Shown in pieces: positions 32,105 through 60,170 of a stretch of DNA of 64,000 bases (the stretch's first letter is position 1; each line of letters opens with the position of its first letter). Both the position numbers and the translations under genes were made by a program. Under the pieces are notes generated by a model. The model worked only from the letters and a program-made list of their open reading frames with translations, did not search any database and was not told where the DNA came from. The stretch is from contig JAEEVK010000007.1 of the NCBI GenBank assembly GCA_016287095.1, forward strand, positions 274 to 64,273, given 5' to 3'. The DNA is from Lachnospiraceae bacterium. GTDB lineage: Bacteria > Bacillota > Clostridia > Lachnospirales > Lachnospiraceae.

Positions 32105-32133
32105 TTGACAAGTTATCGGAGACTAACTATAAT
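32105..32133 (+). promoter_or_regulatory. consensus promoter of feoA-feoA-feoB operon
   Basis: AAAAAATGCTTGACA, TTGACA 32105..32110, 17-nt spacer, TATAAT 32128..32133. Confidence 0.75.
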
Positions 32134-32159
32134 ACAGACGAAGTAAGCGGAAACTAACT
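32111..32159. promoter_or_regulatory. two GTTAG-N6-CTAAC-type boxes in the feo promoter/leader
   Basis: agttatcggagactaact (32111..32128, fills the promoter spacer) and agtaagcggaaactaact (32142..32159). Confidence 0.55.
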
Positions 32160-32206
32160 CTAAATAGGGCGATTTGAGCAATTATAGAGGAGTAAAGGAG
32201 GTAGTG

Positions 32207-32419
32207 ATGATGCCTTTAAGTTTGGCGAATCCCGGTGAGGAATCAGTAATAAAAAAAGTAGGCGGAAGCCCTGAAGTAAAGCAGCATCTTGAAAACTTAG
32301 GTTTTGTAGTTGGCGGAAATGCGACAGTAGTTTCATCCATTGGCGGCAACTTGATAGTAAATGTCAAAGAGTCTCGAGTAGCCATCAGCAAAGAAATGGC
32401 TGCGAAGATCATGATTTAA
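32207..32419 (+). CDS. feoA: FeoA-family protein
   Basis: SH3-like FeoA pattern LANPGEESVIKKVGG...LENLGFVVG. ATG after aaggagg. Confidence 0.85.
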   Translation: MMPLSLANPGEESVIKKVGGSPEVKQHLENLGFVVGGNATVVSSIGGNLIVNVKESRVAISKEMAAKIMI

Positions 32420-32477
32420 GAATCTTTTTAGAAGAATCTTTGAAACGGTTATAAAGGCAGAAAGGAGCAACAACTAA

Positions 32478-32699
32478 ATGAAAACACTTAGAGATGTGGA
32501 GATTGGCGGCACCGCCAAGGTAAAAAAACTCCATGGCGAGGGAGCTATTAAGAAAAGGATCATGGACATGGGTATCACAAAGGGTATCGAGATTTATGTC
32601 CGTAAGGTAGCACCTTTAGGAGATCCTATAGAGATAACAGTCAGAGGCTATGAGCTTTCATTAAGAAAAGCAGACGCAGAACTTATAGAGTGTATGTGA
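32478..32699 (+). CDS. feoA: FeoA-family protein (second copy)
   Basis: LRDVEIGGTAKVKKLHGEGAIKKRIMDMGITKG...VRGYELSLRK. Confidence 0.88.
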   Translation: MKTLRDVEIGGTAKVKKLHGEGAIKKRIMDMGITKGIEIYVRKVAPLGDPIEITVRGYELSLRKADAELIECM

Positions 32700-32777
32700 T
32701 AAAGTTATCCTGAGCTGAGCGAAGGATCTTTTATTTACAGCCATGGTTACCTTGGGGTAACATTTTTAAACACGTAC

Positions 32778-32795
32778 AGTTAGCGCAATATAACT
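32778..32795. promoter_or_regulatory. box-like site between feoA2 and feoB
   Basis: agttagcgcaatataact (GTTAG-N6-aTAAC). Preceded by the weak hairpin atcct...aggat plus T-run at 32706..32735. Confidence 0.4.
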
Positions 32796-32912
32796 AAATC
32801 TGAATTATTTAATTAATAACGGTTTCATCGATAACATAGCAGGCGCGTTATCATGCGTTACGAATCCGGTTTTATAAAAAATATACATCTAGTCTGCAGA
32901 AAGGTACAACAC

Positions 32913-35429
32913 ATGGACATCAGAATAGCCCTTGCGGGCAACCCGAACAGTGGTAAAACCACCCTGTTCAATGCACTGACCGGTTCCAATCAGTTTGTAG
33001 GAAACTGGCCCGGAGTTACTGTAGAGAAAAAAGAAGGTAAATTAAAGAAACATGATGGTGTGACCATTACCGACCTTCCCGGTATTTACTCATTATCACC
33101 TTATACCTTGGAAGAAGTAGTAGCCAGAAACTATCTGATCAACGAGCGTCCCGATGCAATACTTAATATCATCGACGGTACAAACCTTGAGCGTAACCTG
33201 TATCTTACCACTCAGCTTGTAGAACTCGGTATTCCGGTAGTTTTAGCCATCAACATGATGGATGTAGTTAAGAAAAACGGTGACAAGATAGATACAAAGC
33301 AGCTTTCAAAGCAGCTGGGCTGTAAGATAGTTGAGATATCGGCGCTTAAGGGCGACGGTATCATGGAGGCAGCAGAAGAGGCTATAGATGCTGCAAAGAA
33401 TGGCAGAACCATTCCTCAGCATACATTCTCAGGACCTGTAGAACATGCAATCGCTCATATCGAGGAAGCAGCTATACACGGTATGCCTGAGGATCAGCAG
33501 AGATGGTACGCTATAAAGATCTTCGAGAGAGATGAAAAGATCTTAGAGCAGATGAATATCCCTGAGGCTACATTAAAGCATATCGAGAATGATATCGCTG
33601 CAGCTGAAAAGGAACTTGACGATGATGCAGAATCAATCATCACAAATGAGAGATATGTATACATCGGAGAAATCTTAAAGGCTTCATATAAGAAAAAGAA
33701 TAAAGGCGGCTTATCCACATCGGATAAGATCGATAAGATAGTAACCAACAGATGGTTAGGACTTCCTATATTTGCAGCAGTTATGTTTGCTATCTACTAC
33801 CTGGCTATGGTTACGGTAGGTGCCAGTGCTACAGATTGGGCAAACGACGGATTATTCGGTGATGGCTGGCACTTGTTCGGTATCGGCGGCAGTGCTACAG
33901 AGGAAGCTGAAGAAGAGTATGGTGATACAGATGCCATCCTTGCAGGTTTCCTTGCAAAGGCAGATGAAGACGGTATAGACATAGCAGCAGCTGAAGAAGC
34001 TATGGATACTGAAGCAGAAGAGTTTGATGCTGCAGTAGCTGTTGATGAATTAAATGCCATCATGGCAAACTATTCGGATAAGTCCATGGAACTTACCTAT
34101 GAACTTGAAGATGAGGAGACCCTGGAGGTTACCGAAGAAACGGCAACCCTGGAGGATGTGGACGGCGCTATCGAGATGTTTGGAAAGTACGAGGGTGGTG
34201 TTGACCCTGCAAATTATGGCGTATGGGTACCCGGTGTTCCTGTACTTGTAGAAGGACTACTTGATAAGATCGGATGTGCAGATTGGCTTAAGAGTCTTAT
34301 CCTTGATGGTATCATTGCCGGTGTAGGTGCAGTACTCGGTTTCGTACCTCAGATGTTGGTTCTATTCTTCCTGCTTGCATTTGTTGAGGCTTGCGGATAC
34401 ATGGCACGTATCGCATTCGTACTTGACAGAGTATTCAGAAAGTTTGGTCTTTCAGGAAAATCATTTATCCCGATCCTTATCGGTACAGGCTGCGGTATCC
34501 CCGGTATCATGGCATCACGTACTATTGAAAATGAACGTGACCGTAGGATGACGATCATGACTACCACATTTATTCCTTGTGGTGCTAAATTACCTTTCAT
34601 CGCTATGGTAGCAGGTGCTATATTTGATGGATCTGCATTGATATCAACAGGTGCTTACTTTATCGGACTTGCAGCGATCATCATCTCCGGTATCATGTTA
34701 AAGAAGACAAAGATGTTCTCCGGCGAGCCTGCTCCTTTCGTTATGGAGCTTCCCGCATATCACATGCCTACACTTGGAAACGTACTCAGAAGCATGTGGG
34801 AGCGTGGATGGAGCTTTATCAAGAAAGCCGGAACCGTTATCCTTATTTCACAGATTGTTATCTGGTTCTTACAAGGATTTGGTTGGGCAGAGGATGGCTT
34901 CAGGATGCTTGCAGAGGATGAGATCGATGTCAGCATATTAGCTAAGATTGGTAATGCTGTCGCTTGGATCTTCTCACCTCTCGGATGGGGCAACTGGCAG
35001 GCAGTCGTTGCATCTGTCACAGGACTTGTTGCAAAGGAAAACATTGTTGGTACAATGGGTGTTCTTTATGGTGGTGCAGGCAATACATACGAAGCAATCG
35101 GTGCAGCATTTACAGGTATTACAGGTATGTCATTCCTGGTATTCAACCTCCTTTGTGCTCCCTGCTTCGCAGCAATCGGTGCTATCAAGCGTGAGATGAA
35201 CAGCCGTAAGTGGACATGGTTTGCAATTGGTTACCAGTGTGGATTTGCATATCTTGTAGCACTTTGCATCATGCATATCGGCGGACTGTTCACCGGTGAG
35301 GCAAATGTTATCGGCGTAATAGTTTCTGTAGCAGCTATCGCATTTATGTGCTACATGCTGTTCAGACCTTACAAAGAGGCTAACATCAGAACTGCAAAAT
35401 ATAAGGGTGAAAGCAAGAAGGCCGCATAA
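32913..35429 (+). CDS. feoB: ferrous iron transporter FeoB (with ~110-aa acidic loop insertion)
   Basis: G-domain IALAGNPNSGKTTLFN, DLPG, NMMD. Polytopic C-terminal permease. ATG 32913 after gaaagg. Confidence 0.92.
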   Translation: MDIRIALAGNPNSGKTTLFNALTGSNQFVGNWPGVTVEKKEGKLKKHDGVTITDLPGIYSLSPYTLEEVVARNYLINERPDAILNIIDGTNLERNLYLTTQLVELGIPVVLAINMMDVVKKNGDKIDTKQLSKQLGCKIVEISALKGDGIMEAAEEAIDAAKNGRTIPQHTFSGPVEHAIAHIEEAAIHGMPEDQQRWYAIKIFERDEKILEQMNIPEATLKHIENDIAAAEKELDDDAESIITNERYVYIGEILKASYKKKNKGGLSTSDKIDKIVTNRWLGLPIFAAVMFAIYYLAMVTVGASATDWANDGLFGDGWHLFGIGGSATEEAEEEYGDTDAILAGFLAKADEDGIDIAAAEEAMDTEAEEFDAAVAVDELNAIMANYSDKSMELTYELEDEETLEVTEETATLEDVDGAIEMFGKYEGGVDPANYGVWVPGVPVLVEGLLDKIGCADWLKSLILDGIIAGVGAVLGFVPQMLVLFFLLAFVEACGYMARIAFVLDRVFRKFGLSGKSFIPILIGTGCGIPGIMASRTIENERDRRMTIMTTTFIPCGAKLPFIAMVAGAIFDGSALISTGAYFIGLAAIIISGIMLKKTKMFSGEPAPFVMELPAYHMPTLGNVLRSMWERGWSFIKKAGTVILISQIVIWFLQGFGWAEDGFRMLAEDEIDVSILAKIGNAVAWIFSPLGWGNWQAVVASVTGLVAKENIVGTMGVLYGGAGNTYEAIGAAFTGITGMSFLVFNLLCAPCFAAIGAIKREMNSRKWTWFAIGYQCGFAYLVALCIMHIGGLFTGEANVIGVIVSVAAIAFMCYMLFRPYKEANIRTAKYKGESKKAA

Positions 35430-35485
35430 TATAATAACAAATGTCATTCTTAAATCAGAGTGATGGTTATATGATTTAAATAAGG

Positions 35486-35574
35486 TGTCATCCTGAGCTT
35501 TGACATGACTGTTTTGGCAGTCAAGTCTCCAACAAAGAATCATTATAATTTCTTTGCTGAAACTCAGGATGACA
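35486..35574 (+). other. 89-nt three-stem structured element downstream of feoB
   Basis: Closing 12-bp perfect stem tgtcatcctgag / ctcaggatgaca encloses two hairpins (35502..35527; caaagaa/ttctttg 35533..35556). Confidence 0.5.
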
Positions 35575-35644
35575 TCGATTTATATTGAAATATTATATAA
35601 TAAATGTTAGTATAAAGGAAAATAAAGCACAGAGAGGAGGACTA

Positions 35645-36097
35645 ATGGATATGAATCCCGGCACTTTTGCAGTATTAGCAGTACTGATAATAATTGTAGG
35701 ACTGATTGTCTACAAAATGATAAAAGATAAAAAATCGGGGAAATCCTCTTGTTCATGTGGCGGCAGCTGTTCGGGCTGTGGTATGGCAGGGAGCTGTCAC
35801 AAACCTCAATCCGGGAAATCGTCTGATACATCGGGTGATAATAGCATTGTAGTAGAAGATCAAAATGTCATAAAGAAAATAACCCTTCAGATTGATGGCA
35901 TGATGTGTGGAATGTGTGAAAGTCATATAAACGATGCTATCAGGTCAAATCTAAATGTGAAGAAACTAAAAACATCCCATGCAACCGGTCTGTCGGAGTT
36001 CCTTACCAATGATGTGGTATCTGATGAAAGATTGAAGGATATCATAAATAAAACAGGTTACAAAGTACTTGAAATAAAAAGAGAATATATTAGTTAA
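35645..36097 (+). CDS. FeoB-associated Cys-rich membrane protein fused to an HMA (heavy-metal-associated) domain
   Basis: TM helix, then KKSGKSSCSCGGSCSGCGMAGSC, then HMA fold with GMMCGMCESHI. ATG 35645 after gaggagg. Confidence 0.75.
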   Translation: MDMNPGTFAVLAVLIIIVGLIVYKMIKDKKSGKSSCSCGGSCSGCGMAGSCHKPQSGKSSDTSGDNSIVVEDQNVIKKITLQIDGMMCGMCESHINDAIRSNLNVKKLKTSHATGLSEFLTNDVVSDERLKDIINKTGYKVLEIKREYIS

Positions 36098-37996: not shown

Positions 37997-38302
37997 TCAA
38001 TTGTTAAGGCGAACTTTTAGGTCAAAGAGAGTCCTTTTGAAAGAAAGGTTGGATTTGATAATCTGTAAAAACTCTGATATACAATGTATAAAAGCGGCAA
38101 TTATGCAGAAAGATAAGACTTTGCCAGTATTATGCAATATGCCCTCACAGATTTCTATCATGTGACAGATAGCACAGTCTTCTCCTTCGCAATCATGTTC
38201 GCTTTCAGTTATGATATAGACTGAAGAGAAGATAGTGAGCATGAGTAATAAAACGGCAAGGATACCGGCCGCAGATTTCCTAAAAATCAGATTATTACGC
38301 AT
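37997..38302 (-). CDS. small membrane protein with Cys/His cluster (first gene of the znuA operon)
   Basis: TM helix, then SEHDCEGEDCAICHMIEICEGILH and a second hydrophobic segment. ATG 38302 after gggagga. Confidence 0.6.
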   Translation of the reverse strand: MRNNLIFRKSAAGILAVLLLMLTIFSSVYIITESEHDCEGEDCAICHMIEICEGILHNTGKVLSFCIIAAFIHCISEFLQIIKSNLSFKRTLFDLKVRLNN

Positions 38303-38334
38303 AACTATATCCTCCCTGAAAAGATTCGTTAGTG

Positions 38335-38363
38335 ATTCTATCACAGTGGATTTATTATGTCAA
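38335..38363 (-). promoter_or_regulatory. minus-strand promoter of the membrane-protein/znuA/lipoprotein operon
   Basis: On the minus strand: TTGACA, 17-nt spacer, TGn-TAGAAT. Confidence 0.5.
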
Positions 38364-38369
38364 GAAAAA

Positions 38370-38457
38370 TGATAATAATTCTCAAATAAAATCCGATAAT
38401 CGTTCTCAAATAACTTGACAAATGAAAATTATGTATTATAATTGAGAAAGATTTTCA
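38370..38457. promoter_or_regulatory. three Fur-family 7-1-7 boxes (candidate Zur boxes) in the divergent zinc promoter region
   Basis: tgataataattctca (38370..38384, 14/15 to TGATAATNATTATCA), cgataatcgttctca (38394..38408), tgagaaagattttca (38443..38457, directly after the plus-strand -10). Confidence 0.6.
38415..38442 (+). promoter_or_regulatory. promoter of zur-znuC-znuB
   Basis: TTGACA 38415..38420, 16-nt spacer, TATAAT 38437..38442. Confidence 0.6.
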
Positions 38458-38476
38458 AATTGGCGGAGGTGCAATT

Positions 38477-38896
38477 TTGGAAAAAAGATCGGTATATAAG
38501 ACAAAGCAGAGGGAGAAGCTGCTTAATTACCTTGAAGGAGCAAAAGGAAAGCACATTACTGTAGCAGATGCATGTGAATTTTTCCGCTCTCAGGGAGAGA
38601 CCATAGGACAGGCTACTGTGTACCGTCAGTTAGAAAAGCTGGTGGATGAAGGTATAGTCAATAAATATATTATAGATATGAACAGTCCGGCCTGCTTTGA
38701 ATATACCGGAGGTTCGCACTGCTCCGAAGAAACCTGTTTTCATTGTAAATGTGAAAAATGCGGAAAGCTTATCCATATGCATTGTGATGAATTAAATGAA
38801 CTGGAGTCACATTTATATGAGCATCATCAGTTCCGTATGGATCCGAAGAGGACGGTATTTTACGGTATATGTGATGACTGCCAGGCGGGACAATGA
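38477..38896 (+). CDS. zur: Fur-family regulator, probably Zur
   Basis: Winged-helix N-terminus (ATVYRQLEKLVDEG), CxxC pairs (CKCEKCGK...CDDC), TTG start after ggaggtg. Zinc-transporter context. Confidence 0.8.
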   Translation: MEKRSVYKTKQREKLLNYLEGAKGKHITVADACEFFRSQGETIGQATVYRQLEKLVDEGIVNKYIIDMNSPACFEYTGGSHCSEETCFHCKCEKCGKLIHMHCDELNELESHLYEHHQFRMDPKRTVFYGICDDCQAGQ

Positions 38897-40536: not shown

Positions 40537-40590
40537 TTGACATTTTTGAGTTAGCGTGGTATAACTATATAGGTTAGATAACACTAACCT
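40537..40590 (+). promoter_or_regulatory. promoter of the second DtxR-family gene with two boxes
   Basis: TTGACA 40537..40542, 17-nt spacer, TGn-TATAAC 40560..40565. Boxes agttagcgtggtataact (40549..40566) and the perfect aggttag-ataaca-ctaacct (40571..40590). Confidence 0.6.
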
Positions 40591-40672: not shown

Positions 40673-41053
40673 ATGGGCAGGACTATGAAGATTTCAAAAG
40701 AAGATTATCTTGAAACCATCCTTGTCTGTACCAATAAGCTTGGTGCGTGCAGGGTTACGGATATTGCTGCCCATCTCGGTCATTCTAAAGCAAGTGTCAG
40801 TGTGGCTCTTTCTAAACTGGAAAATGAAGGTCTGATAATAAAGGATGACTGGAGGATACTTCTTTCTGACTCCGGTAAAATCTCAGCCGAAAAGATATTG
40901 GAGCGTCACATGTTCTTTATTAAATGGTTTGAACATATCGGCATAGACAAGGAAACTGCTAAAGAAGATGCCTGCCTTATAGAGCATGCGATATCTGATA
41001 CGACCTTTGAAAAGATAAAATCACATTTACGGATGTTAGATAAAGACATCTAA
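40673..41053 (+). CDS. DtxR/MntR-family metal-dependent transcriptional regulator
   Basis: EDYLETILV...HSKASVSVALSKLENEGLI HTH, ERHMFFIKWF...DACLIEHAIS metal/dimerisation domain. No SH3-like C-domain. Confidence 0.85.
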   Translation: MGRTMKISKEDYLETILVCTNKLGACRVTDIAAHLGHSKASVSVALSKLENEGLIIKDDWRILLSDSGKISAEKILERHMFFIKWFEHIGIDKETAKEDACLIEHAISDTTFEKIKSHLRMLDKDI

Positions 41054-41067: not shown

Positions 41068-41085
41068 TGTTAGTTGAGACTAACA
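41068..41085. promoter_or_regulatory. perfect GTTAG-N6-CTAAC box upstream of the small-protein/ATPase operon
   Basis: tgttagttgagactaaca. Overlaps the alternative small hairpin actaac-aaaa-gttagt plus T6. Confidence 0.5.
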
Positions 41086-41214
41086 AAAGTTAGTTTTTTG
41101 ATGATAAGCACTTGGTGCTATACTATATTTAAGCCAAATTATAATGGGTTGATAGCCCACAGGATTTGTTTATAAAAATGGCAGACAATTAATTTAGCAC
41201 AAGGAGGTTTTTAT

Positions 41215-41502
41215 ATGAACTGGAAGAAATTATGTACATTTGCAGGCGGTGTTCTTTTTGGAACAGCAGGTGTTGCTATCCTTTCAAGCAAGGATGCAAA
41301 AACAGTATATACCCATTGTACCGCAGCGGTTCTCCGTGGCAAGGACAGCGTAATGAAGACTGCAGCTACTATAAAGGAAAACTGTGGTGATATCCATGAG
41401 GATGCTGTAGATATCAATGAAAAACGTTATGATAAGAAGAGAAAGCAGGAATACGAAAAGGCTAAGGCTATAATCGAAAGCTACGAAGAACAGGAAGCGT
41501 GA
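41215..41502 (+). CDS. small N-terminally anchored protein, closely spaced (5-nt gap) upstream of the ATPase gene
   Basis: RBS aaggagg, one N-terminal hydrophobic helix, charged helical tail. Stop lies 5 nt before the ATPase ATG. Confidence 0.6.
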   Translation: MNWKKLCTFAGGVLFGTAGVAILSSKDAKTVYTHCTAAVLRGKDSVMKTAATIKENCGDIHEDAVDINEKRYDKKRKQEYEKAKAIIESYEEQEA

Positions 41503-41507
41503 ATCCT

Positions 41508-43610
41508 ATGAAATGTGTAGTATTACATGAATCAAGTAAAAAAATAAGGATAAAAATACCTTATCCGTGTATGTCCATGCACAGAGCGGACCTCGTGGAA
41601 TACTATATCCGTAACATCGATGTTGTAAAAGAAGTTTCTGTAGATGAAAGAACCGGCAATGCAGTAGTAACATTTCTTAATTCATCCGAAAAGGATAAGG
41701 AAAGTCTGTTTTCTGCACTGGCGGTTTTTGACCCTCAGGATGAAAGAATAAAAGCACTCGTACCGGAAAATACCGGTAGAGAGATGAACCGTAAGTATGA
41801 GGAAAAGCTGTTCTTCTCCGTTACCGGGATGTTCATGAGAAAAATCTTTCTGCCCACACCGCTGGCAATAGCCAGAAGCATCGCCAAGAGCATCCCTTAT
41901 ATAGTCAAGGGTTTGCTTGCACTTAAAAACGGTAAGCTGCAGGTTGAAACTCTTGATGGTGTGGCTATAGCTACCTCGATCATCAGGAGAGATTTTGATA
42001 CAGCTTCTTCTATTATGTTCCTGCTCAATATCGGTGAGACCCTCGAAGAATGGACACGCAAAAAATCAATTAATGACCTTGCACATTCTATGTCACTGAA
42101 TATAGATAAGGTATGGCTTAAAAACGATGGGAAAGAAATACAGGTTGGTGTAAACCAGGTACTTGCAGGTGATCATATTATCGTCAGAAATTCAGAGATC
42201 ATACCTCTTGACGGTAAAGTTATCGAAGGCGAGATGACTGTAAACCAGTCCATTATGACCGGTGAATCCGAGCCTGTGGTAAAGAGTCCGGGTGGCTATG
42301 TATATGCCGGTACTGTCGTAGAGGAAGGCGAATGTATCATCGAGGTTACAAAGACAGCCGGCAGCGGTAAGTTCGACCAGATAGTCAAAATGATAGAAGA
42401 GTCTGAAAAATTAAAATCGGATACAGAGGCTAAAGCATACCGACTGGCTGATAAACTTGTACCATATAGTCTTTTGGGAGCAGGTATAACATATCTGCTC
42501 ACCAGAAATGCTACTAAAGCACTTTCGTTCCTGATGGTTGATTATTCATGTGCCATGAAGTTATCCATGCCTTTAGCAGTGCTTTCTGCTATTAAGGAAT
42601 GCAGGGAACACAGGATATCCGTAAAGGGCGGCAAATTTATGGAAGCCATGGCTGAAGCTGATACTCTGGTATTTGATAAAACAGGAACACTCACACACGC
42701 TACTCCTACACTTATGGATGTAGTAAGCTTTGAAGGCCGTGATCCTGATGAGATGCTGCGTATAGCAGCTTGCCTTGAAGAGCATTATCCTCATTCTGTA
42801 GCCAATGCTATAGTAAAAGGTGCTAAGGATAAAGGGCTGGATCATGATGAACTGCATTCAAAGGTGGAATATATTGTTGCACACGGCATAAGCAGTTCCA
42901 TAGATAATGAACATGTAGTCATAGGCAGTTATCACTTTGTCATGGAGGATGAGGGATGTATCATCCCTGAAGATGAGGCTTATAAGCTTGACGAGATAAA
43001 CAGGGAATACTCACGTATTTTTATGGCTATCGGAGGCAGGCTGGCAGCAGTGCTCTGTATCTTTGATCCTTTAAGAGAAGAAGCAGCAGAGGTTATCAAA
43101 AGCCTTCACGAACTGGGCTTTAAGAAAATCTGCATGATGACCGGTGATAACAAAAAGAATGCCCAGGCTGTAGCCGCCAAACTGAGTCTGGATGAATTCT
43201 GTGCTGAGGTGCTCCCTGAGGATAAAGCGGAATTTGTAAAAAACGAACGACAAAAAGGACATAAGGTAGTCATGATAGGTGATGGGGTAAATGATACACC
43301 TGCACTTTCTGAAGCGGACGTAGGTATAGCTATCCTTGACGGAGCTCCGATAGCACGAGAAATAGCAGATATCACCATTGCTTCTGATGATCTGCATCAG
43401 CTTATCACGTTAAGAGAAATAAGCACAGCTCTGATGAAGAGGATAAAAGCGAATTACAGGTTTATACTTGGATTTAATTCTGCACTTATTGCCGGAGGAC
43501 TTTTCGGTGTTATGAATCCTGCATCGTCAGCTCTGCTTCATAATGGTTCTACTATACTGACAGGGCTTAAGAGTATGACAAATCTTTTGCCTGACACTAA
43601 AACAATCTGA
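41508..43610 (+). CDS. P1B-type (heavy-metal) P-type ATPase with SCA in place of the CPC transmembrane motif
   Basis: DKTGTLT (42675..), TGES, MTGDN, GDGVNDTPAL. TM motif YSCAMKL (SCA codons 42546..42554). N-terminal HMA-like fold without CxxC. ATG 41508 after aggaag. Confidence 0.9.
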   Translation: MKCVVLHESSKKIRIKIPYPCMSMHRADLVEYYIRNIDVVKEVSVDERTGNAVVTFLNSSEKDKESLFSALAVFDPQDERIKALVPENTGREMNRKYEEKLFFSVTGMFMRKIFLPTPLAIARSIAKSIPYIVKGLLALKNGKLQVETLDGVAIATSIIRRDFDTASSIMFLLNIGETLEEWTRKKSINDLAHSMSLNIDKVWLKNDGKEIQVGVNQVLAGDHIIVRNSEIIPLDGKVIEGEMTVNQSIMTGESEPVVKSPGGYVYAGTVVEEGECIIEVTKTAGSGKFDQIVKMIEESEKLKSDTEAKAYRLADKLVPYSLLGAGITYLLTRNATKALSFLMVDYSCAMKLSMPLAVLSAIKECREHRISVKGGKFMEAMAEADTLVFDKTGTLTHATPTLMDVVSFEGRDPDEMLRIAACLEEHYPHSVANAIVKGAKDKGLDHDELHSKVEYIVAHGISSSIDNEHVVIGSYHFVMEDEGCIIPEDEAYKLDEINREYSRIFMAIGGRLAAVLCIFDPLREEAAEVIKSLHELGFKKICMMTGDNKKNAQAVAAKLSLDEFCAEVLPEDKAEFVKNERQKGHKVVMIGDGVNDTPALSEADVGIAILDGAPIAREIADITIASDDLHQLITLREISTALMKRIKANYRFILGFNSALIAGGLFGVMNPASSALLHNGSTILTGLKSMTNLLPDTKTI

Positions 43611-43644
43611 CCTCATAAAAATCGTTTCTCTCCATAAAAGAAAT

Positions 43645-43685
43645 CGGCCGGTTTCAAATATCTTATTGGAACCGGTCGGTTTTTA
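43645..43685 (+). terminator. intrinsic terminator after the ATPase
   Basis: cggccggtttc / ggaaccggtcg stem then T-run. Confidence 0.75.
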
Positions 43686-43733
43686 TCTTTATCCAAAGTA
43701 ATAAAAAAAATTTTAAAAACTTAAAAAAAATGC

Positions 43734-43780
43734 TTGACAAAAATAAACATTATGATATAATCAGTTAGCGTAAGGTAACT
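43734..43780 (+). promoter_or_regulatory. promoter plus box at the start of a long leader
   Basis: AAAAAAAATGCTTGACA, TTGACA 43734..43739, 16-nt spacer, TGn-TATAAT 43756..43761. Box agttagcgtaaggtaact 43763..43780. Confidence 0.65.
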
Positions 43781-44018
43781 GACAGATGTTTTTAAATAAT
43801 CATTCGATAATAAGCTTATCGTTAATCCTTCAAACCTCAAGACAGTATGCCGCCAACGTACTGTCATATAGACTTTTTAGACTAGAGACCCAATTACTTC
43901 TTATTTAGCTTTGATAAGTATCGGATGATTAACTAAAATATGTTTGTTAGAGATACTGTAAATTACGACTGACCCTGACCCGTTTAGGGGAGGGGATCAG
44001 TCGATAATTTATCAGTAT

Positions 44019-44036
44019 AGTTAGCAATGGCTAACT
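44019..44036. promoter_or_regulatory. perfect box agttagc-aatg-gctaact inside the leader
   Basis: Shares an identical 20-mer (gttagcaatggctaactaaa) with the site at 56562. Confidence 0.5.
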
Positions 44037-44060
44037 AAATCAATTATTTTATCTTGTTAT

Positions 44061-44085
44061 AAAAGGCTTGTTAAGCAGGCCTTTT
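44061..44085 (+). terminator. terminator-like hairpin just upstream of the RBS of the 44118 gene
   Basis: aaaaggcttg / caggcctttt (10 bp, one G-U), loop ttaag, T-rich tail. Confidence 0.5.
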
Positions 44086-44117
44086 AAATATTTAAAGGAA
44101 AGGAAAATGAATAAATC

Positions 44118-45509
44118 ATGAAAGGATTTATCAAAACACTTACAGCACTTTTGTTGGTGCTGACACTGGGCATTTTTACTGTTGAAATGCCTGCATCCAA
44201 TGTAAAAGCGGATGAACCGGTAGCTGAACAGGCTATCAATGGGGAGGATTTCTTAAACGAAATCAAAGGAGAATATGTTCCTCTTTTTATAGGAGGTATT
44301 TTTAACTCGGAATATGATCATTATTGGCATGATTACACTGCAGCTGTAGTTGGTGAGTCAATGGCTGATATGTGTGTAGGTATTATGAAGCAGGCTATCG
44401 GAGCAACTACTTACGGTGATGAGGCAGGCGACGATTTCTTCTGCGGTTATACTGAGGATGTTGCTAAGATCACATTTGGTGGCGATGATGGCACAAAGGT
44501 TACATTCACAAAGAATAACGGAAAGGAAATTACTCATGATTATGCATTTGTAAAAATTGCATCAGCTACCGGCACTGTTGAAGGACAGGAGATGGGATAT
44601 GAGGGATGCCTGTACAAGAGCAAGGACGGTAACAAAGATGAGTTTGCATACATTTTCATGTGTCCTGATACACCTGCTACCACTTACCATCTTGAGTTCA
44701 GATATGGAAGCAGTGAAGAAGAGATTCTTAAGTTAACTGAGGGCAAATATAAGAACTGGCTTAGTGCAGGTTTCCCTGCAGATGCATTTGATGATCCTCA
44801 GGAGATAATGATCCAGAAGGTTATAGCACTCTTTGTTGTAGAAAATTTAGCACCCATGAGCGGAGCAGAGGCTAACGCACAGAGAGCATCTATGGCAGGT
44901 GTATGGTCTATGGATACCTCTATGTTAAAGGATTATCCCGGATATGAAAATGCTTCAATGGTAATGCAGCTCAGCAAGGCAGGTTTCGGCAAGAGCTATG
45001 TTGATATGGCAGGCAGCGGCGACTATATGCTCGCCAGCCAGTATCCTTTCTATATCTACGCAACCGAAAAGAATGATGAAGTAGAGAACGGTGTTTACAT
45101 CGTAGTAAGTGAGGATGAAGGAACAAAGACAGCTACTTACGAGATCAGTGTTATCGATGGTACCCGTACCCTTATATTCCATTCATCGGAAGGTGACATC
45201 ACATACTTCTATAATGAAGGCTTAGCTCCTGATGCTGTCAGCATCTCTAAGGCAAAAGCAAAGAGCAACAAGAAAATCTCTGTATCTTGGACTGCAGCAG
45301 AAAATGCAGAAGGATATGAGATTGTATATTCAACAAACAGTAATTTCAAGAAAGCAAAGACAAAGACCATAACCGGTAAGACCTCAGGTAAGACCAAGAA
45401 ACTTAAGAGCAACACTTACTATGTAAAGGTACGTGCATTCTCTACAGATTATGAGGGCAACAAGGTATATGGCGAGTTCTCAGAAGTTAAGACAGTTATC
45501 GTTAGATGA
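44118..45509 (+). CDS. secreted protein: ZinT/YodA-like lipocalin region(s) plus C-terminal Fn3 domain
   Basis: Signal peptide. By-eye colinearity with E. coli ZinT (GYTEDVAKITF..., YIFMCPDTPATTYHLEFRYG, KNW). Fn3 tail ISVSWTAAENAEGYEIVYS...YYVKVRAF. Confidence 0.7.
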   Translation: MKGFIKTLTALLLVLTLGIFTVEMPASNVKADEPVAEQAINGEDFLNEIKGEYVPLFIGGIFNSEYDHYWHDYTAAVVGESMADMCVGIMKQAIGATTYGDEAGDDFFCGYTEDVAKITFGGDDGTKVTFTKNNGKEITHDYAFVKIASATGTVEGQEMGYEGCLYKSKDGNKDEFAYIFMCPDTPATTYHLEFRYGSSEEEILKLTEGKYKNWLSAGFPADAFDDPQEIMIQKVIALFVVENLAPMSGAEANAQRASMAGVWSMDTSMLKDYPGYENASMVMQLSKAGFGKSYVDMAGSGDYMLASQYPFYIYATEKNDEVENGVYIVVSEDEGTKTATYEISVIDGTRTLIFHSSEGDITYFYNEGLAPDAVSISKAKAKSNKKISVSWTAAENAEGYEIVYSTNSNFKKAKTKTITGKTSGKTKKLKSNTYYVKVRAFSTDYEGNKVYGEFSEVKTVIVR

Positions 45510-45551
45510 TTTCTCTGAAACTGAAATACATAAAAATCTTCCTTAAAGTTG

Positions 45552-45582
45552 AAAGGAGCGGCTTGATTGCTGCTCCTTTTTT
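45552..45582 (+). terminator. intrinsic terminator
   Basis: aaaggagcg / tgctccttt stem then T6. Confidence 0.8.
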
Positions 45583-45597
45583 CAGCTCAAAAGGATA

Positions 45598-45652
45598 TTG
45601 ACAAATAGATTTATAAATATATAATATGGGTAGAAGTTAGGAGACTCTAACC
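45598..45652 (+). promoter_or_regulatory. promoter plus perfect box upstream of the ZIP transporter
   Basis: TTGACA 45598..45603, 16-nt spacer, TATAAT 45620..45625. Box agttaggagactctaacc 45635..45652 (GTTAG-N6-CTAAC). Confidence 0.65.
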
Positions 45653-45678
45653 AACATCATTATATGGAGATGAAATTT

Positions 45679-46458
45679 ATGTCAATAGAAATAATAGAAG
45701 GTATCCTGATTCCATTCCTTGGTACGACACTAGGAGCAGCCTGCGTATTTTTCCTTAAAGGGGAAATGAATGATAAACTTAAAAAAGCAATGGGTGGATT
45801 TGCAGCCGGAGTTATGATTTCAGCATCGTTTTTCAGTTTGCTTCTGCCGGCGCTTGAGCAGTCGGATGATATGGGAAAACTGTCATTTGTACCTGCAATG
45901 ATTGGATTTATCATCGGTATGCTGTTCCTTTTGTTCCTGGATATTATTATACCGCATATGCATCTGGATAAGAGTGAAGAGGGACCTAAGTCAGGTCTTA
46001 AGCGTACCACCAAGTTGGTGCTTGCAGTTACACTGCATAATCTTCCGGAAGGAATGGCAGTCGGTATTGTTTATGCCGGCTGGATGTATGGAAATAATGA
46101 GATAGCTTTGAGTGGAGCATTAGCCCTGGCTCTTGGTATAGCGTTACAGAATTTCCCGGAGGGAGCCATAGTATCCATGCCTCTTGTAGCTGAAGGTATG
46201 CCAAAATGGAAGACATTTGTATATGGTACCCTGTCAGGTATAGTAGAGCCGATAGGAGCGTTGCTTACCATATTTGCCGCAAGCTTCTTTTTGCCTGTGC
46301 TTCCTTATCTGTTAAGCTTCGCCGCCGGTGCAATGTTTTATGTAGTGGTAGAAGAGCTTATACCTGAGATGTCTGAGGGTGAGCATTCCAATATCGGAAC
46401 AGTCTGTTTTGCAGTAGGTTTTGTAATGATGATGGCCCTTGATGTAGGACTTGGTTAA
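45679..46458 (+). CDS. ZIP-family divalent metal transporter (ZupT-like)
   Basis: Polytopic. HNLPEGMAVG and QNFPEGA motifs. ATG 45679 lies 8 nt after ggaga; in-frame ATGs at 45664 and 45670 are also possible. Confidence 0.85.
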   Translation: MSIEIIEGILIPFLGTTLGAACVFFLKGEMNDKLKKAMGGFAAGVMISASFFSLLLPALEQSDDMGKLSFVPAMIGFIIGMLFLLFLDIIIPHMHLDKSEEGPKSGLKRTTKLVLAVTLHNLPEGMAVGIVYAGWMYGNNEIALSGALALALGIALQNFPEGAIVSMPLVAEGMPKWKTFVYGTLSGIVEPIGALLTIFAASFFLPVLPYLLSFAAGAMFYVVVEELIPEMSEGEHSNIGTVCFAVGFVMMMALDVGLG

Positions 46459-56040: not shown

Positions 56041-56450
56041 GGTTACTTCAGAAAGCATCATATTGAAGCGCTCCTTAAGACGGCAAAGATTAAACCTATG
56101 GTAAATCAGATCAGGTTGTGTCCCGGTGAAACTCAGAATGAAAACGTTGAGTACTGCAGATCTCAGGGTATGATCCTTGAAGCATATAGTCCACTTGAAA
56201 CAGGTAGATATTTGATGTACCTGAGATGAAGAAGCTTGCTGATAAATATGGCAGGAGCGTTGCTCAGATATGTATTCGTTGGAGCCTTCAGAGAGGGTAC
56301 CTGCCATTACCTAGGTCTGTTACACCTTCAAGGATAGAGGAAAATCTAAAGGTATTCGATTTTGAACTTGAAGAAGCAGATGTTCAGCTGATAGCAGGAC
56401 TTACAGGTTGTGTAGGTTTGTCAGAAAATCCTGATACAATGCCATTCTAA
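56041..56450 (+). pseudogene. aldo-keto reductase remnant: 5'-truncated and frameshifted
   Basis: Frame 1 reads ...IEALLKTAKIKPMVNQIRLCPG...YCRSQGMILEAYSPLETG, then a stop at 56227. Frame 3 continues IFDVPEMKKLADKYGRSVAQICIRWSLQRGYLPLPRSVTPSRIEENL. The N-terminal ~140 aa are absent. Confidence 0.8.
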
Positions 56451-56525: not shown

Positions 56526-56578
56526 TTGACAACTAAAAAAAGAAATGATATAAATATAGAGGTTAGCAATGGCTAACT
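56526..56578 (+). promoter_or_regulatory. promoter plus perfect box upstream of DUF3793-flavodoxin
   Basis: TTGACA 56526..56531, 17-nt spacer, TGn-TATAAA 56549..56554. Box ggttagcaatggctaact 56561..56578. Confidence 0.65.
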
Positions 56579-56667: not shown

Positions 56668-56685
56668 GGTTAGCAAATGCTAACT
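56668..56685. promoter_or_regulatory. second perfect box near the RBS/start of the DUF3793 gene
   Basis: ggttagcaaatgctaact (GTTAG-N6-CTAAC), 23 nt before the ATG. Confidence 0.5.
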
Positions 56686-56707: not shown

Positions 56708-57256
56708 ATGATTGAAAATCTTGTAACCAGATTTTGTTCACCTACTCTGGCAGGACTTAAAACCGGAAGTCTGTTTACGGTAAGAGGCAGGAAAAAAGAG
56801 GAGCTAACAGAAGATTTAAGAAAACTGAATCGAGTTCTTACGCATAAAGGTCTAAGGGCACTGCTGTTTACTGCAAAATGCGGAAACAATCTTGTTTACA
56901 TATATAGGCCTAAACTGTTGAAACGTGATCTTTCATGCTCAGAGGCAGAGAGCATATTAAAAAATAAAGGATATTCTGCTTTGAACAGTACTGAAAGATG
57001 TATAGTTCAATTGGCAAAGCATATATCCAATGATACTGATTTTCCACATGAGATTGGTCTGTTCTTAGGATATCCGCCTACTGATGTTAAGTGCTTTATG
57101 GAAAACTCGCGGGAAGGAGTAAAGTGCTCAGGATGCTGGAAGGCCTATGGGAACAAAGAAGAGGCAGAGAAAATATTTGCTTTATATAGAAAATGTACAA
57201 ATATATATTGCAGGAAGATAAGAGAAGGTGTCAGACTGGAAAAACTTATAGTTTAA
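56708..57256 (+). CDS. conserved hypothetical protein (DUF3793-like, as far as I recall that family)
   Basis: N-terminal CSPTLAGLKTGSLF and central FPHEIGLFLGYPPTDV pattern. Gene pair with flavodoxin. Confidence 0.65.
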   Translation: MIENLVTRFCSPTLAGLKTGSLFTVRGRKKEELTEDLRKLNRVLTHKGLRALLFTAKCGNNLVYIYRPKLLKRDLSCSEAESILKNKGYSALNSTERCIVQLAKHISNDTDFPHEIGLFLGYPPTDVKCFMENSREGVKCSGCWKAYGNKEEAEKIFALYRKCTNIYCRKIREGVRLEKLIV

Positions 57257-57287
57257 AAAATAATAAAAATAGAAAGGATCAAGAAAA

Positions 57288-57710
57288 ATGAGTAAAGTAG
57301 CAGTAGTATATTGGAGCCAGACAGGAAACACAAAACTTATGGCTGAGGCAGTTGAGAATGGAGCATCGGGAAAGGGTGCAGAAACAGCTATTTTTGAAGC
57401 TAATGACTTCTCAGCATCAAAAGCAGCAGAGTTTGATGGTATAGCTTTTGGTTGTCCTGCAATGGGTGCAGAGGAGCTTGAGGATACAGAGTTTGAGCCT
57501 ATGTTTGCAGCAGTTGAAGGATCACTTGCAGGAAAGAAGGTAGCGCTTTTTGGTTCATATGGCTGGGGTGACGGTCAGTGGATGAGAGACTGGGAAGACA
57601 GATGCAAAAACAATGGTATAACTCTTTGTACGGAGAGTGTAACAGCCAACGAAGCACCTGATGATGCAGCAACGGCAGCATGCAAGGCATTAGGAGAGGC
57701 ATTAGCATAA
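57288..57710 (+). CDS. short-chain flavodoxin
   Basis: VVYWSQTGNTKLMAEAV FMN phosphate loop, GSYGWGDG. Confidence 0.9.
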   Translation: MSKVAVVYWSQTGNTKLMAEAVENGASGKGAETAIFEANDFSASKAAEFDGIAFGCPAMGAEELEDTEFEPMFAAVEGSLAGKKVALFGSYGWGDGQWMRDWEDRCKNNGITLCTESVTANEAPDDAATAACKALGEALA

Positions 57711-57945: not shown

Positions 57946-57977
57946 TATACATTTTTATATAAGTGAATAAAAAATAC

Positions 57978-58006
57978 TTGACAAAATATATTTTATCAAA
58001 TATAAT
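57978..58006 (+). promoter_or_regulatory. consensus promoter of gpx-marR with a 22-bp palindrome covering the -35 and spacer
   Basis: TTGACA 57978..57983, 17-nt spacer, TATAAT 58001..58006. ttgacaaaatatattttatcaa is palindromic except for one position. Confidence 0.7.
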
Positions 58007-58038
58007 ATGATAAAATATAAAATTGGAGGTACATGATT

Positions 58039-58581
58039 ATGAGTTTTTATGATTTAAGCGTAACGGCAGCAAACGGTATTGAAGTTTCTATGAAAGATTA
58101 TGCGGGCAAGGTGGTTTTAGTAGTCAATACTGCCACCGGCTGTGGGTTTACACCTCATTACAAGGATATTGAGGCTATGTATGAAAAGTTTCATGACAGA
58201 GGATTTGAAGTAATCGATGTTCCCTGCAACCAGTTTGCAGGTCAGACTCCCGGTACAGATGATGAGATACATGAGTTCTGTACATTAAAGTATCATACAC
58301 AGTTTCCTCAGATGAAAAAGTCTGATGTTAATGGCGAGACGGCTATTCCACTGTTTAAATACCTTAAATCACAGAAAGGTTTCGAGGGTTTCGGCAAGGG
58401 ACCTAAAGCTTTAGCCATGAGCGCTCTGCTCTCTAAAATGGATAAAGATTACAAAAACAATTCAGAGATCAAATGGAATTTTACCAAGTTTGTTATAGAC
58501 AGGGAAGGTAATGTGGTAGCACGTTTCGAACCGACTGCTAAGATGGATAAAGTTGCTGAATTTGTTGAAAGCCTTTTATAA
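58039..58581 (+). CDS. glutathione peroxidase-family thiol peroxidase (Cys type)
   Basis: VVNTATGCGFTPHY, FPCNQF-like VPCNQFAGQ, WNFTKF. The second ATG (58039) is better spaced from ggagg than 58033. Confidence 0.88.
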   Translation: MSFYDLSVTAANGIEVSMKDYAGKVVLVVNTATGCGFTPHYKDIEAMYEKFHDRGFEVIDVPCNQFAGQTPGTDDEIHEFCTLKYHTQFPQMKKSDVNGETAIPLFKYLKSQKGFEGFGKGPKALAMSALLSKMDKDYKNNSEIKWNFTKFVIDREGNVVARFEPTAKMDKVAEFVESLL

Positions 58582-58611
58582 AATTATATTTTCTATAGTA
58601 GGGTAGATCAA

Positions 58612-59043
58612 ATGAGTGATACTTACGAGCAGTTAAAACTGAAAAACCAATTATGTTTTCCTTTGTATGCATGTTCCAGAAAGATTGTTAATGCTTATAC
58701 TCCATACCTCAAGCCGCTGGGACTCACATATACTCAGTATCTTGTTTTTATGGTACTTTGGGAAAAGAAGGAAGCTACTGTCGGAGAACTTGGCAGCACG
58801 CTTTATCTGGATGCCGGTACACTGAGTCCTTTGTTAAAGAAACTTGAAATAGAAGGACTGATAGCCAGAACTCATCCTGAAAATGATGAGCGGGTAACCA
58901 GCGTTAAGCTTACAGCTAAAGGAGAAGAACTAAAAGAAGCATGTAAGGACATACCGTTCAATGTAGCCTCTGTGGTTGGATCTTTTGATAAGAAAGAAAT
59001 CGAGCAGCTCTATGGACTGCTTTATAAAATTCTTGATCAATAA
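58612..59043 (+). CDS. MarR-family regulator (OhrR-like)
   Basis: LCFPLYACSR (N-terminal reactive-Cys context), winged helix LTYTQYLVFMVLWE...VGELGSTLYLDAGTLSPLLKKLE. Confidence 0.85.
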   Translation: MSDTYEQLKLKNQLCFPLYACSRKIVNAYTPYLKPLGLTYTQYLVFMVLWEKKEATVGELGSTLYLDAGTLSPLLKKLEIEGLIARTHPENDERVTSVKLTAKGEELKEACKDIPFNVASVVGSFDKKEIEQLYGLLYKILDQ

Positions 59044-59126
59044 GCTTATTGACTATTCGTTATTTCAATGATATTATTATATAGTAAGCATTGACTAACT
59101 ATCACGATAATATTTATTGGAGATAT

Positions 59127-60107
59127 ATGAGAAAGTATTTAGATAATAAAAGTCTTTACGACTTTATGAACGGAAAGACACCGGCATTGAAAGAGATTGG
59201 AACTGCGGATATTTCAAGTCAGAAATCCGACAGTGATATCGTTTATTATAGTTGGGATCTTGAATTTGATGCTGATACAGATGCAAAAAAAGAAAACAAT
59301 TCAGGTGTTGACGAAGTACAGATAATCTTTAACCTCAATCAGGATATTGAGTGGATGGTAGGAGAAAATGAGACCGATGAAAAATACCAGATCGTATCCA
59401 TGAAAAAAGGTGATGTATGTATTTACCGAAACGACAATATCGGTACTTCGATGAAATACAAGAAAGGTGTAAACTTTAAGTTCAAAAGTTTACAGATGCA
59501 TACAAAAAGGTTTAAAGAACTGCTAAAAACCCACTTCCCTGAAAATGATATCATAAACATCGAGAAAATTGTTTATGACAGTGTGCAGATGACACGGATT
59601 ACTCCGGAAATGTACAGAATATTATCCGAACTGGACAGCGCTGACAGATATAAGGAATTTAAGGGTGTTTTCCTGGATGCTAAAATGACTGAGCTGACCG
59701 CACTGGTTCTTTTTGAGATAGTTCATAACAGAGAAGAATCAAACAATTATGTTTCTTTAAGAAATAACAGTGACTCATATGCGGTAGAAAAACTGAGGGA
59801 AGATATTCAGCTCTCACCTTTTGAGGATTACGATGCAGAAAGTATTGCAAATAAATTATCCATGAGCGTCAGTAAGCTGAACAGAATATTTCGTGAGCTA
59901 TATGGGACTTCACTTCACTCTTATGTTCAGGAAATGCGTTTGGAACACGCTGCAGAATTGTTGTTAAAAGAGAATATAAATGTTACTGAGGTAGCATTAA
60001 GCTCCGGTTACAACAACATGAGTTATTTTTCAAAAGCCTTTAAAGGAAGGTTTGGAGTAACACCCAAAAAGTTTTCTGAGCGAAAAGTGTTAAAAAATGA
60101 TTTATAA
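59127..60107 (+). CDS. AraC-family transcriptional regulator
   Basis: C-terminal double HTH (IANKLSMSVSKLNRIFRELYG...VALSSGYNNMSYFSKAFKGRFGVTP). ATG 59127 after ggaga. Confidence 0.85.
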   Translation: MRKYLDNKSLYDFMNGKTPALKEIGTADISSQKSDSDIVYYSWDLEFDADTDAKKENNSGVDEVQIIFNLNQDIEWMVGENETDEKYQIVSMKKGDVCIYRNDNIGTSMKYKKGVNFKFKSLQMHTKRFKELLKTHFPENDIINIEKIVYDSVQMTRITPEMYRILSELDSADRYKEFKGVFLDAKMTELTALVLFEIVHNREESNNYVSLRNNSDSYAVEKLREDIQLSPFEDYDAESIANKLSMSVSKLNRIFRELYGTSLHSYVQEMRLEHAAELLLKENINVTEVALSSGYNNMSYFSKAFKGRFGVTPKKFSERKVLKNDL

Positions 60108-60140
60108 ATGGTAGAATTTAATAAAGCTTTAATGTATAAT

Positions 60141-60170
60141 CCGTGTGGTTAGCAATAGGTAACCACACGG
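60141..60170. promoter_or_regulatory. 11-bp-stem palindrome containing a GTTAG-N6-gTAAC box (operator and/or AraC-gene terminator)
   Basis: ccgtgtggtta-gcaatagg-taaccacacgg, immediately after TATAAT (60135..60140) and followed by attaaaTTTTTT. Confidence 0.6.

Follow-up and report, generated by a model that had tools for sequence, protein, structure and literature searches.

A 64-kb stretch of DNA from the metagenome-assembled genome of an uncultured Lachnospiraceae bacterium (assembly GCA_016287095.1, contig JAEEVK010000007.1; hereafter the window) carries many copies of one palindrome, GTTAG-N6-CTAAC, in and around its promoters, together with two genes for metal sensors of the DtxR family, here called DtxR1 and DtxR2. 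This raises the question of what binds the palindrome, which metal is sensed and which genes respond. An earlier inspection of the letters alone (the sequence-only reading) had proposed that the palindrome links 9 transcription units into a metal regulon, with DtxR-type half-sites set apart by an expanded spacer. On the analysis presented here, we consider it highly probable that a clade of small clostridial metal sensors of the DtxR family that lack an SH3-like domain, DtxR1 and DtxR2 among them, has GTTAG-N6-CTAAC as its operator and controls an iron regulon.

Distribution of the palindrome

The gene map of the window, built from open reading frames (ORFs) and Pfam hits, comprises 57.4 kb of coding and 6.6 kb of non-coding sequence. 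Exact copies of GTTAG-N6-CTAAC number 6, compared to 0.06 expected from dinucleotide-preserving shuffles, and with ≤1 mismatch there are 13 copies between positions 32,112 and 60,163, compared to 1.7 expected. All 13 are non-coding, where 0.18 would be expected in 6.6 kb; none was found in the 57.4 kb of coding sequence, i.e., the similar density in coding or random sequence that the sequence-only reading had named as grounds for rejection was not seen. A symmetrised position weight matrix (PWM), a check which that reading had suggested, separates the 13 sites (≥15.2 bits) from background (≤10.7 bits), with a weak 14th candidate palindrome at 32746–32761, near site 32779, scoring 13.2 bits. 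The twelve sites read by eye before are all present (at 32112, 32143, 32779, 40550, 40573, 41069, 43764, 44020, 45636, 56562, 56669 and 60148) and only their starts needed correction, by one or two flanking bases; a thirteenth site, at 59084, had been missed. The motif had not been noticed in the first 31 kb, and a pattern search allowing ≤1 mismatch likewise returns none in the first 32 kb. Across the window and the related loci described below, the GTTAG/CTAAC arms of the 16-bp palindrome are nearly invariant, the 6-nt centre varies freely, and no compensatory changes were seen in the arms. The flanks of the palindromes are mutually unrelated, which argues against a mobile repeat. The palindrome is a genuine cis-regulatory motif, tying together ~9–10 transcription units, in line with the 9 first proposed.

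We then compared 80 loci (893 kb) from other Clostridia, which encode regulators 43–52% identical to DtxR2 and were obtained via the family alignment. The exact motif recurs 45 times in these loci, compared to 0.43 expected, and among the spacer lengths N0–N12 only N6 occurs, so that phylogenetic footprinting, also suggested by the sequence-only reading, speaks for the motif. The PWM trained on the window yields 61 matches, 55 of them non-coding, with at least one match in 33 of the 80 loci and a match <350 bp upstream of the regulator gene in 19. Nearby genes encode FeoA/FeoB (often divergent from the regulator), DUF3793 proteins, flavodoxin, P1B ATPases, ABC transporters, AraC-type regulators and pyruvate formate-lyase: sites stand at DUF3793 and flavodoxin genes in L012, L018, L030 and L056, before an AraC gene in L007, and at ABC homologues in L044, L050, L067 and L069. 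Carriers of the motif include Butyrivibrio, [Ruminococcus] faecis and Blautia genomes (L030, L050 and L052). At higher regulator identity (81% and 60%), a whole module of dtxR2, a gene for a small DUF6110 protein and an ATPase gene is conserved together with its sites. Since the motif flanks homologous regulators and the same target families, as its earlier attribution to DtxR-family proteins would predict, these sequence comparisons give us good confidence that it belongs to this regulator clade. In one locus from Candidatus Eubacterium (L064, 2851–5202), a pyruvate formate-lyase gene has an exact site 64 bp upstream, which would fit a low-iron replacement of the iron-rich pyruvate:ferredoxin oxidoreductase.

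Regulators and geometry of the palindrome

DtxR1 (31505–31957, − strand; 150 aa from a plausible start at 31957) is encoded divergently from feoA, and DtxR2 (40673–41053, + strand; 126 aa) by the first gene of the conserved dtxR2-DUF6110-ATPase module. The two proteins are 38% identical, and in each the PF01325 winged-helix domain and the PF02742 dimerisation/metal domain lie above Pfam cut-offs, which bears out the earlier recognition of two DtxR-family regulators in the window. Both are two-domain proteins that end after the dimerisation domain, no SH3-like third domain, which in Fe2+ sensors of the IdeR/DtxR type contributes to the ancillary site, having been found in either by Pfam or Protein Data Bank (PDB) alignments. 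The recognition helices read SKPSVSRAI in DtxR1 and SKASVSVAL in DtxR2. Aligned with IdeR (EMYLE/TEMYLR and DACKIEH/EACRWEH), DtxR1 shows the ligand set Met/Cys/Glu/His, equivalent to M10, C102, E105 and H106, while DtxR2 has Asp/Cys/Glu/His, i.e., three of the four IdeR-type ligands. A sulfur-containing primary site is thought to favour Fe2+ (PMC11672702). The residue equivalent to Glu99 of the manganese sensor MntR is Cys in both proteins. The DtxR1 family is very large, with at least 7,993 matches, and is found in Lachnospiraceae, Acutalibacteraceae and Oscillospiraceae. At its C-terminus (31505–31590, − strand), DtxR1 carries a histone-H1-like tail, rich in Lys, Ala and Ser and variable in length (KKTNDKTASKSVAKAGTKKTSKAGAKSKK), which is kept in its closest orthologues, is lacking in more distant family members, and may add non-specific DNA affinity.

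The geometry of the palindrome can be examined against DtxR-family proteins of known structure. In IdeR–DNA structures, each subunit sits on one of four CCTAA repeats of a 19-bp operator, TTAGGTTAGSCTAACCTAA, with one dimer on repeats 1 and 3 and a second one on repeats 2 and 4, and a designed half-site binds a single dimer with normal affinity (PMC8464063). Because each IdeR dimer sees TTAG-N6-CTAA, GTTAG-N6-CTAAC corresponds to the one-dimer unit of the classical operator. The spacer is thus not expanded, as had been thought; what is absent is the second, interleaved dimer site, and its two-dimer core, GTTAG-N1-CTAAC, occurs neither in the window nor in the 80 loci. Leyn and Rodionov reportedly predicted archaeal "FetR" regulons in 2015. 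In the archaeon Haloferax volcanii, the iron-responsive DtxR-family protein TroR represses uptake and regulates another DtxR paralogue, and its motif from chromatin immunoprecipitation sequencing, TTTAGGC-N3-CCTAAA, has the TTAG-N6-CTAA spacing, with tandem sites ~30 bp apart (PMC10783522). Taken together, the IdeR–DNA structures (PMC8464063) and the TroR motif (PMC10783522) rule out a new binding geometry.

The system in the window shares with IdeR/DtxR of Actinobacteria the same DNA-binding and dimerisation/metal Pfam domains, the TTAG/CTAA core with a 10-bp centre-to-centre spacing per dimer, the primary-site ligands Met/Cys/Glu/His (in DtxR1) and the overlap of sites with promoters, from which IdeR/DtxR repress iron uptake. 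It differs from them in the size of the regulators (only ~120–150 aa, without the SH3-like domain), in the lack of an interleaved second dimer site, in place of which there are often separate tandem palindromes 20–35 bp apart, and in an extra conserved outer G/C of the motif. The base beside TTAG is C/T here, whereas in IdeR sites it is G, contacted by Gln43; this residue is replaced by Arg in DtxR1 and by Val in DtxR2, and the two differences are probably connected. Bacillus subtilis MntR, of which one dimer binds each ~18-bp inverted repeat and represses on sigma-A promoters (PMC11882963), resembles DtxR1 and DtxR2 in its two-domain build and in the occupancy, predicted for the sites here, of one dimer per ~16–18-bp inverted repeat overlapping a promoter. 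Unlike MntR, with its all-oxygen/His binuclear Mn site (Asp8, Glu99, Glu102, His103 etc.), the two proteins have Cys instead, and DtxR1 also Met, and the targets are iron genes rather than mntH, mntABCD or mneP. The likeness to TroR, also an iron-responsive DtxR-family protein, lies in a single-palindrome TTAG-N6-CTAA layout with tandem sites; the archaeal promoter context and flanking bases are different, and TroR targets siderophore genes and dpsA, not feo, fez or flavodoxin genes. Overall, the proposed operator mechanism is of a well-known kind.

Proposed operator sites, promoters and target genes

Several textbook sigma-70 promoters are present in the site-bearing region. Nine sites lie in promoter spacers or 2–10 nt past a −10 element, much as the sequence-only reading had described for the majority; seven of them (32143, 40573, 43764, 45636, 56562, 59084 and 60148) start at the latter distance. 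The site-bearing units are feo, dtxR2, DUF6110-ATPase, a gene for a 463-aa protein, a ZIP transporter gene, DUF3793-flavodoxin, an AraC-type gene and an ABC heterodimer.

The feo genes (32207–36097, + strand), which comprise feoA1-feoA2-feoB and a gene for a FeoB-associated Cys-rich/HMA protein and serve ferrous iron uptake, follow a 12/12 consensus promoter (−35 at 32105–32110, −10 at 32128–32133), the 17-nt spacer of which is filled by site GTTATCGGAGACTAAC (32112–32127). A second site, GTAAGCGGAAACTAAC (32143–32158), begins 31 bp past the first and covers approximately +3 to +18 of the feo transcript; the double site is conserved in L090. Between feoA2 and feoB stands GTTAGCGCAATATAAC (32779–32794), the right half of which, TATAAC, may double as the −10 of an internal promoter. 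At dtxR2 (TTGACA at 40537–40542, 17 nt, TATAAC at 40560–40565), site GTTAGCGTGGTATAAC (40550–40565) takes in spacer and −10, and 23 bp past it site GTTAGATAACACTAAC (40573–40588; extended, TATAGGTTAG...CTAACCTATA) lies at the transcription start. The promoter and its operators form a reusable cassette, TTGACA-N7-GTTAGC-N4-TATAAC-N6-8-GGTTAG-N6-CTAACC, seen at 40537–40588 and again in L081 (7840–7960); the first operators of the cassette carry one mismatch because their imperfect right half-site is the −10 hexamer itself.

The next site, GTTAGTTGAGACTAAC (41069–41084), lies between dtxR2 and the DUF6110 gene, upstream of a −35; after it come AAAA and a further GTTAG half-site (41089–41093). Its centre is at approximately −54 relative to the TGcTATACT promoter of the DUF6110 and ATPase genes, an architecture conserved in L081 and L085. 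From there it could repress or activate: B. subtilis MntR is able to activate where its site overlaps the −35 or lies upstream of it (PMC11882963), and by analogy this offers a possible model. The genes downstream (41215–43610, + strand) encode a candidate ferrosome iron-storage pair. The P1B ATPase of the sequence-only reading is not a generic exporter: the 703-aa protein carries VDYSCAMK and LLHNGSTIL, i.e., the DYSCA and HNGST signatures of a P1B-6, FezB-type pump, and no CPC/SPC motif. The P1B-6 group, which includes the ferrosome pump FezB, is marked by D[Y/F]SCA in transmembrane segment 4 and HNxxT in transmembrane segment 6 (10.1101/2020.01.10.902569). The N-terminus of the ATPase reads KKIRIKI, not a strict RxR. 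We liken the small DUF6110 protein to FezA by its hydrophobic N-terminus, which contains GGVLFGTAG (GxxxG) like the small proteins of fez clusters, so that the two genes together make a candidate FezA/FezB-like pair. In Clostridioides difficile, FezA and FezB are required for ferrosomes and are Fur-repressed (PMC12574912). As in that species, ferrous uptake, a FezA/FezB P1B-6 pair and flavodoxin would here stand under one iron sensor; unlike C. difficile, where this is Fur with its Fur box, a DtxR-family protein appears to fill the role, by non-orthologous replacement. A preprint by Grant et al. lists Fur and DtxR genes as frequent fez-cluster neighbours and gives no motif (10.1101/2020.01.10.902569).

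Farther downstream (44118–46458, + strand) come a 463-aa secreted protein (44118–45509) and a ZIP/ZupT-like transporter, each with its own site. The former had been called ZinT-like, for which sequence searches of Pfam, NCBIfam and PDB give no support; they assign it to no family, save for a weak fn3 match. Two sites precede it: GTTAGCGTAAGGTAAC (43764–43779), 2 nt past the −10 of a 12/12 consensus promoter (43734–43761) and conserved with that promoter in L090, L092 and L093, and GTTAGCAATGGCTAAC (44020–44035), 83 nt before the gene start in the 3′ part of a structured-RNA locus, with counterparts in L090, L093 and L097. The ZIP gene has GTTAGGAGACTCTAAC (45636–45651), 10 nt past the −10 of its promoter (45598–45625), and its orthologue in L081 is also preceded by a site; there, the ZIP gene and a 464-aa gene adjoin the module of the DtxR2 orthologue, each with sites.

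The DUF3793 protein and short-chain flavodoxin (56708–57710, + strand) form an operon with a second copy of GTTAGCAATGGCTAAC (56562–56577), 7 nt past the −10 (TTGACA at 56526–56531, 17 nt, TATAAA at 56549–56554), and with GTTAGCAAATGCTAAC (56669–56684), located in the 5′ leader 23 nt ahead of the start codon of DUF3793. The last genes (59127–63667, + strand) encode an AraC-type regulator and a heterodimeric ABC transporter of the exporter fold. The previously missed site, GTAAGCATTGACTAAC (59084–59099), lies 6 nt past the −10 of the AraC-type gene promoter (59049–59077), and GTTAGCAATAGGTAAC (60148–60163), upstream of the ABC heterodimer, 7 nt past a TATAAT. This last site sits in a perfect inverted repeat with 15-bp arms (60137–60174) followed by a T run, which could therefore act both as terminator of the AraC gene and as operator plus start region for the ABC operon.

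Two further observations concern the surroundings of these units. Just upstream of the DUF3793 promoter (~56050–56450, + strand) lies the C-terminal half of an aldo/keto-reductase-like protein, in two frames and without an N-terminus, probably a pseudogene remnant. Between the flavodoxin and AraC units, a 12/12 consensus promoter (57978–58006) with no GTTAG site precedes a glutathione-peroxidase–MarR gene pair, and these genes appear to stand outside the regulon.

The regulon had been termed a metal regulon, which is too broad: what it contains is specific to iron, and the zinc genes that lie mid-cluster are without a site, GTTAG-N6-CTAAC being absent at ≤1 mismatch from znuA, the Fur-family gene and znuCB. 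We therefore read it as a regulon for iron rather than for metals in general. Between znuA, which has with it a 115-aa ORF, and the Fur-family gene with znuCB, the divergent promoter region (38365–38460) contains GATAAT-N2-TTCTCAAATAA twice in direct orientation, and TTGAGAA in inverted orientation past the −10, elements that were read by eye; a search of this intergenic region for inverted repeats returned nothing. The repeated element is probably a Zur-type operator, unrelated to GTTAG-N6-CTAAC. Located between znuA and the Fur-family gene, the 115-aa ORF (37997–38344, − strand) codes for a small, hydrophobic, Cys/His-rich protein (...HDCEGEDCAICH...).

The two sites before the 463-aa gene belong to a locus that the sequence-only reading had regarded as the leader of this gene. 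The stretch of 350 nt from the 43734 promoter to the gene folds at −108 kcal/mol, compared to −66 in shuffles (z = −8.4), and promoter, operator and a ~110-nt core are found again in three further variants, on related metagenomic contigs (window 43734–44090; L090 5520–5900, − strand; L081 10960–11223; L093 ~100–520, − strand). In L081 and L092 the element is flanked by convergent genes and has a canonical terminator at its end, and in L090 it runs into a terminator with no same-strand gene after it. Since it is free-standing there, the element is not simply a leader, and in these relatives it is probably a separate conserved RNA gene. The candidate transcript (43768–44090, + strand; ~200–320 nt) is highly structured: an AAAUCCUUCAAACCUC segment is conserved and unpaired, one hairpin has a conserved UGCCGCCAACG loop, and a terminator-like hairpin stands at the end (~44060–44086). 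Two helices show covariation, with 93.6% of cells paired, 5 pairs changed in both partners and 0 of 500 shuffles as good, among four sequences that are all closely related. Rfam gave no match over the whole window at gathering thresholds and only chance-level matches at E ≤ 1 in 43600–44200; blastn of the 43.6–44.2 kb leader against plasmids found nothing, and a covariance model of the core, run on 88 loci and the window, found only its own four source sequences. From these sequence features, we consider the RNA a candidate iron-repressed small RNA, the unpaired AAAUCCUUCAAACCUC segment of which could pair with ribosome-binding sites in an anti-Shine-Dalgarno-like manner. It is predicted to resemble the iron-repressed RNAs RyhB, PrrF and FsrA in having a promoter overlapped by an iron-repressor operator, an unpaired C/U-rich segment and a terminator, and is unlike them in having no sequence or Rfam relationship and in being known from four closely related variants.

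Sensed metal, alternative readings and significance

Several observations weigh against an iron regulon run by DtxR1 and DtxR2 through these operators. Three sites, 41069, 44020 and 56669, lie outside classical repression positions, the latter two in transcribed leaders. As many as 47 of the 80 loci have no site by PWM, and the motif background for this genome is estimated from 64 kb only. DtxR1-type homologues at ~65% identity (L086–L089) have neither sites nor iron genes in their contexts: L086 and L088 count among the observations on this side, and the four together give no help in assigning sites to DtxR1 rather than DtxR2. Finally, databases name both regulators "Mn-dependent", their best NCBIfam matches are MntR models, although far below cut-off, and Asp replaces Met at the first ligand position in DtxR2 and in most homologues of the 80 loci, so that the metal of DtxR2-type proteins could differ.

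The last points lead to the possibility that the same regulators and operators serve manganese homeostasis by sensing Mn2+, or that DtxR1 senses Fe and DtxR2 Mn. Consistent with this, the SH3-less two-domain build and the predicted occupancy of one dimer per ~16–18-bp palindrome match B. subtilis MntR, the best matches in PDB as well as NCBIfam are MntR, and the Asp of DtxR2 stands at the D8 position of MntR; ZIP and some Feo systems, moreover, can carry Mn. Against it, DtxR1 falls far short of the NCBIfam MntR equivalog cut-offs (89.5 vs 153 bits and 63.9 vs 138 bits) and DtxR2 scores lower still, Cys replaces the MntR Glu in both proteins and the IdeR Met is also present in DtxR1, there is no site at any NRAMP or MntABC-type gene, and the targets (feoAB, flavodoxin, fezAB and pyruvate formate-lyase) are classical genes of iron limitation. 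We thus consider manganese sensing unlikely.

The palindrome might also be bound by another factor, such as the Fur-family protein (38477–38896), AraC or MarR, with the DtxR genes merely co-located targets. A Fur-family gene does lie mid-cluster, and the AraC and DtxR2 genes are preceded by sites and hence could be targets rather than binders. The half-site and spacing, however, match experimentally defined dimer sites of the DtxR family, the motif co-occurs with DtxR-family genes in 33 loci from several families, and the znu/Fur-family promoter region has the different repeat GATAAT-N2-TTCTCAAATAA and no GTTAG site, all of which makes a different binder very unlikely. Nor do we see much room for palindromes that function as hairpins in RNA, be it as attenuators, terminators or processing sites, or that represent a dispersed repeat. 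Weak terminator-like hairpins were flagged at 32746, 56562, 56668 and 60137–60174, and sites 44020 and 56669 do lie within transcribed leaders, but sites 32112 and 40550 are in non-transcribed promoter spacers, and the arms are conserved as sequence, without compensatory changes, around a centre that is free to vary, so that recognition takes place at the DNA level; the unrelated flanks speak against a repeat element. A hairpin or repeat origin, which we regard as extremely improbable, was rejected on the spacer sites and the sequence-conserved arms.

Returning to the DtxR-family iron regulon, we propose that at sufficient cytosolic Fe2+ one metal-loaded dimer would bind each palindrome, placing its two recognition helices in major grooves 10 bp apart in the TTAG-N6-CTAA geometry of the IdeR/DtxR dimer. 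Binding would block RNA polymerase, since most sites lie in the −35/−10 spacer or over the start, often paired 20–35 bp apart; when iron drops, the dimers would leave and the regulon would be expressed. Its products would then provide Fe2+ uptake (feoAAB and ZIP), a FezA/FezB-like ferrosome pair and iron sparing (flavodoxin and DUF3793), with the AraC regulator, the ABC heterodimer, the secreted 463-aa protein, dtxR2 itself and the candidate small RNA as further members. The sequence analysis shows the motif, its placement in promoters, its conservation beside the regulators and the same target families, and the ligand residues; we infer Fe2+ as the metal, the sign of regulation and the pairing of paralogues with sites. 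As for the last, linkage suggests feo as the most likely place of action for DtxR1, and for DtxR2 its own promoter together with fezAB, the 463-aa gene and the ZIP gene. Support comes from a relative, Faecalibacterium, in which feoAABC is co-induced with a flavodoxin gene and ferrous sulfate represses feoB; the regulator involved is not named (PMC10781979).

Iron-sensing DtxR proteins have been described mainly in GC-rich Gram-positives and archaea (PMC11672702), and our literature search found no account of a clostridial DtxR-type iron regulon, of this motif or of DUF3793, although an earlier description, e.g., in RegPrecise, may exist. In its control of iron, this uncultured gut or rumen bacterium probably resembles the bacteria of diphtheria and tuberculosis, with a single repressor dimer at each site. 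A broader proposal, which we hold only tentatively and as slightly more doubtful than not, is that an SH3-less DtxR clade, annotated as "Mn-dependent", has replaced Fur as master iron sensor in Lachnospiraceae and neighbouring clostridial families by way of single-dimer TTAG-N6-CTAA operators, with a regulon that includes a ferrosome module in gut and rumen commensals and a new small RNA, repressed by iron, through which an iron-sparing response could be run.

In Lachnospiraceae, Oscillospiraceae and Erysipelotrichaceae, which are dominant in gut and rumen, the regulation of iron is essentially uncharacterised; for these families, the palindrome supplies an operator that can be tested, along with a PWM and a list of iron-control targets, and their regulators have probably been mis-annotated as manganese sensors. 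The ferrosome-type genes of commensals are tied to an identifiable regulator, and a candidate iron-responsive small RNA is pointed out. More generally, the rule of one TTAG-N6-CTAA per dimer would extend from Actinobacteria and Archaea to Clostridia, and can guide motif searches for other members of the DtxR family.

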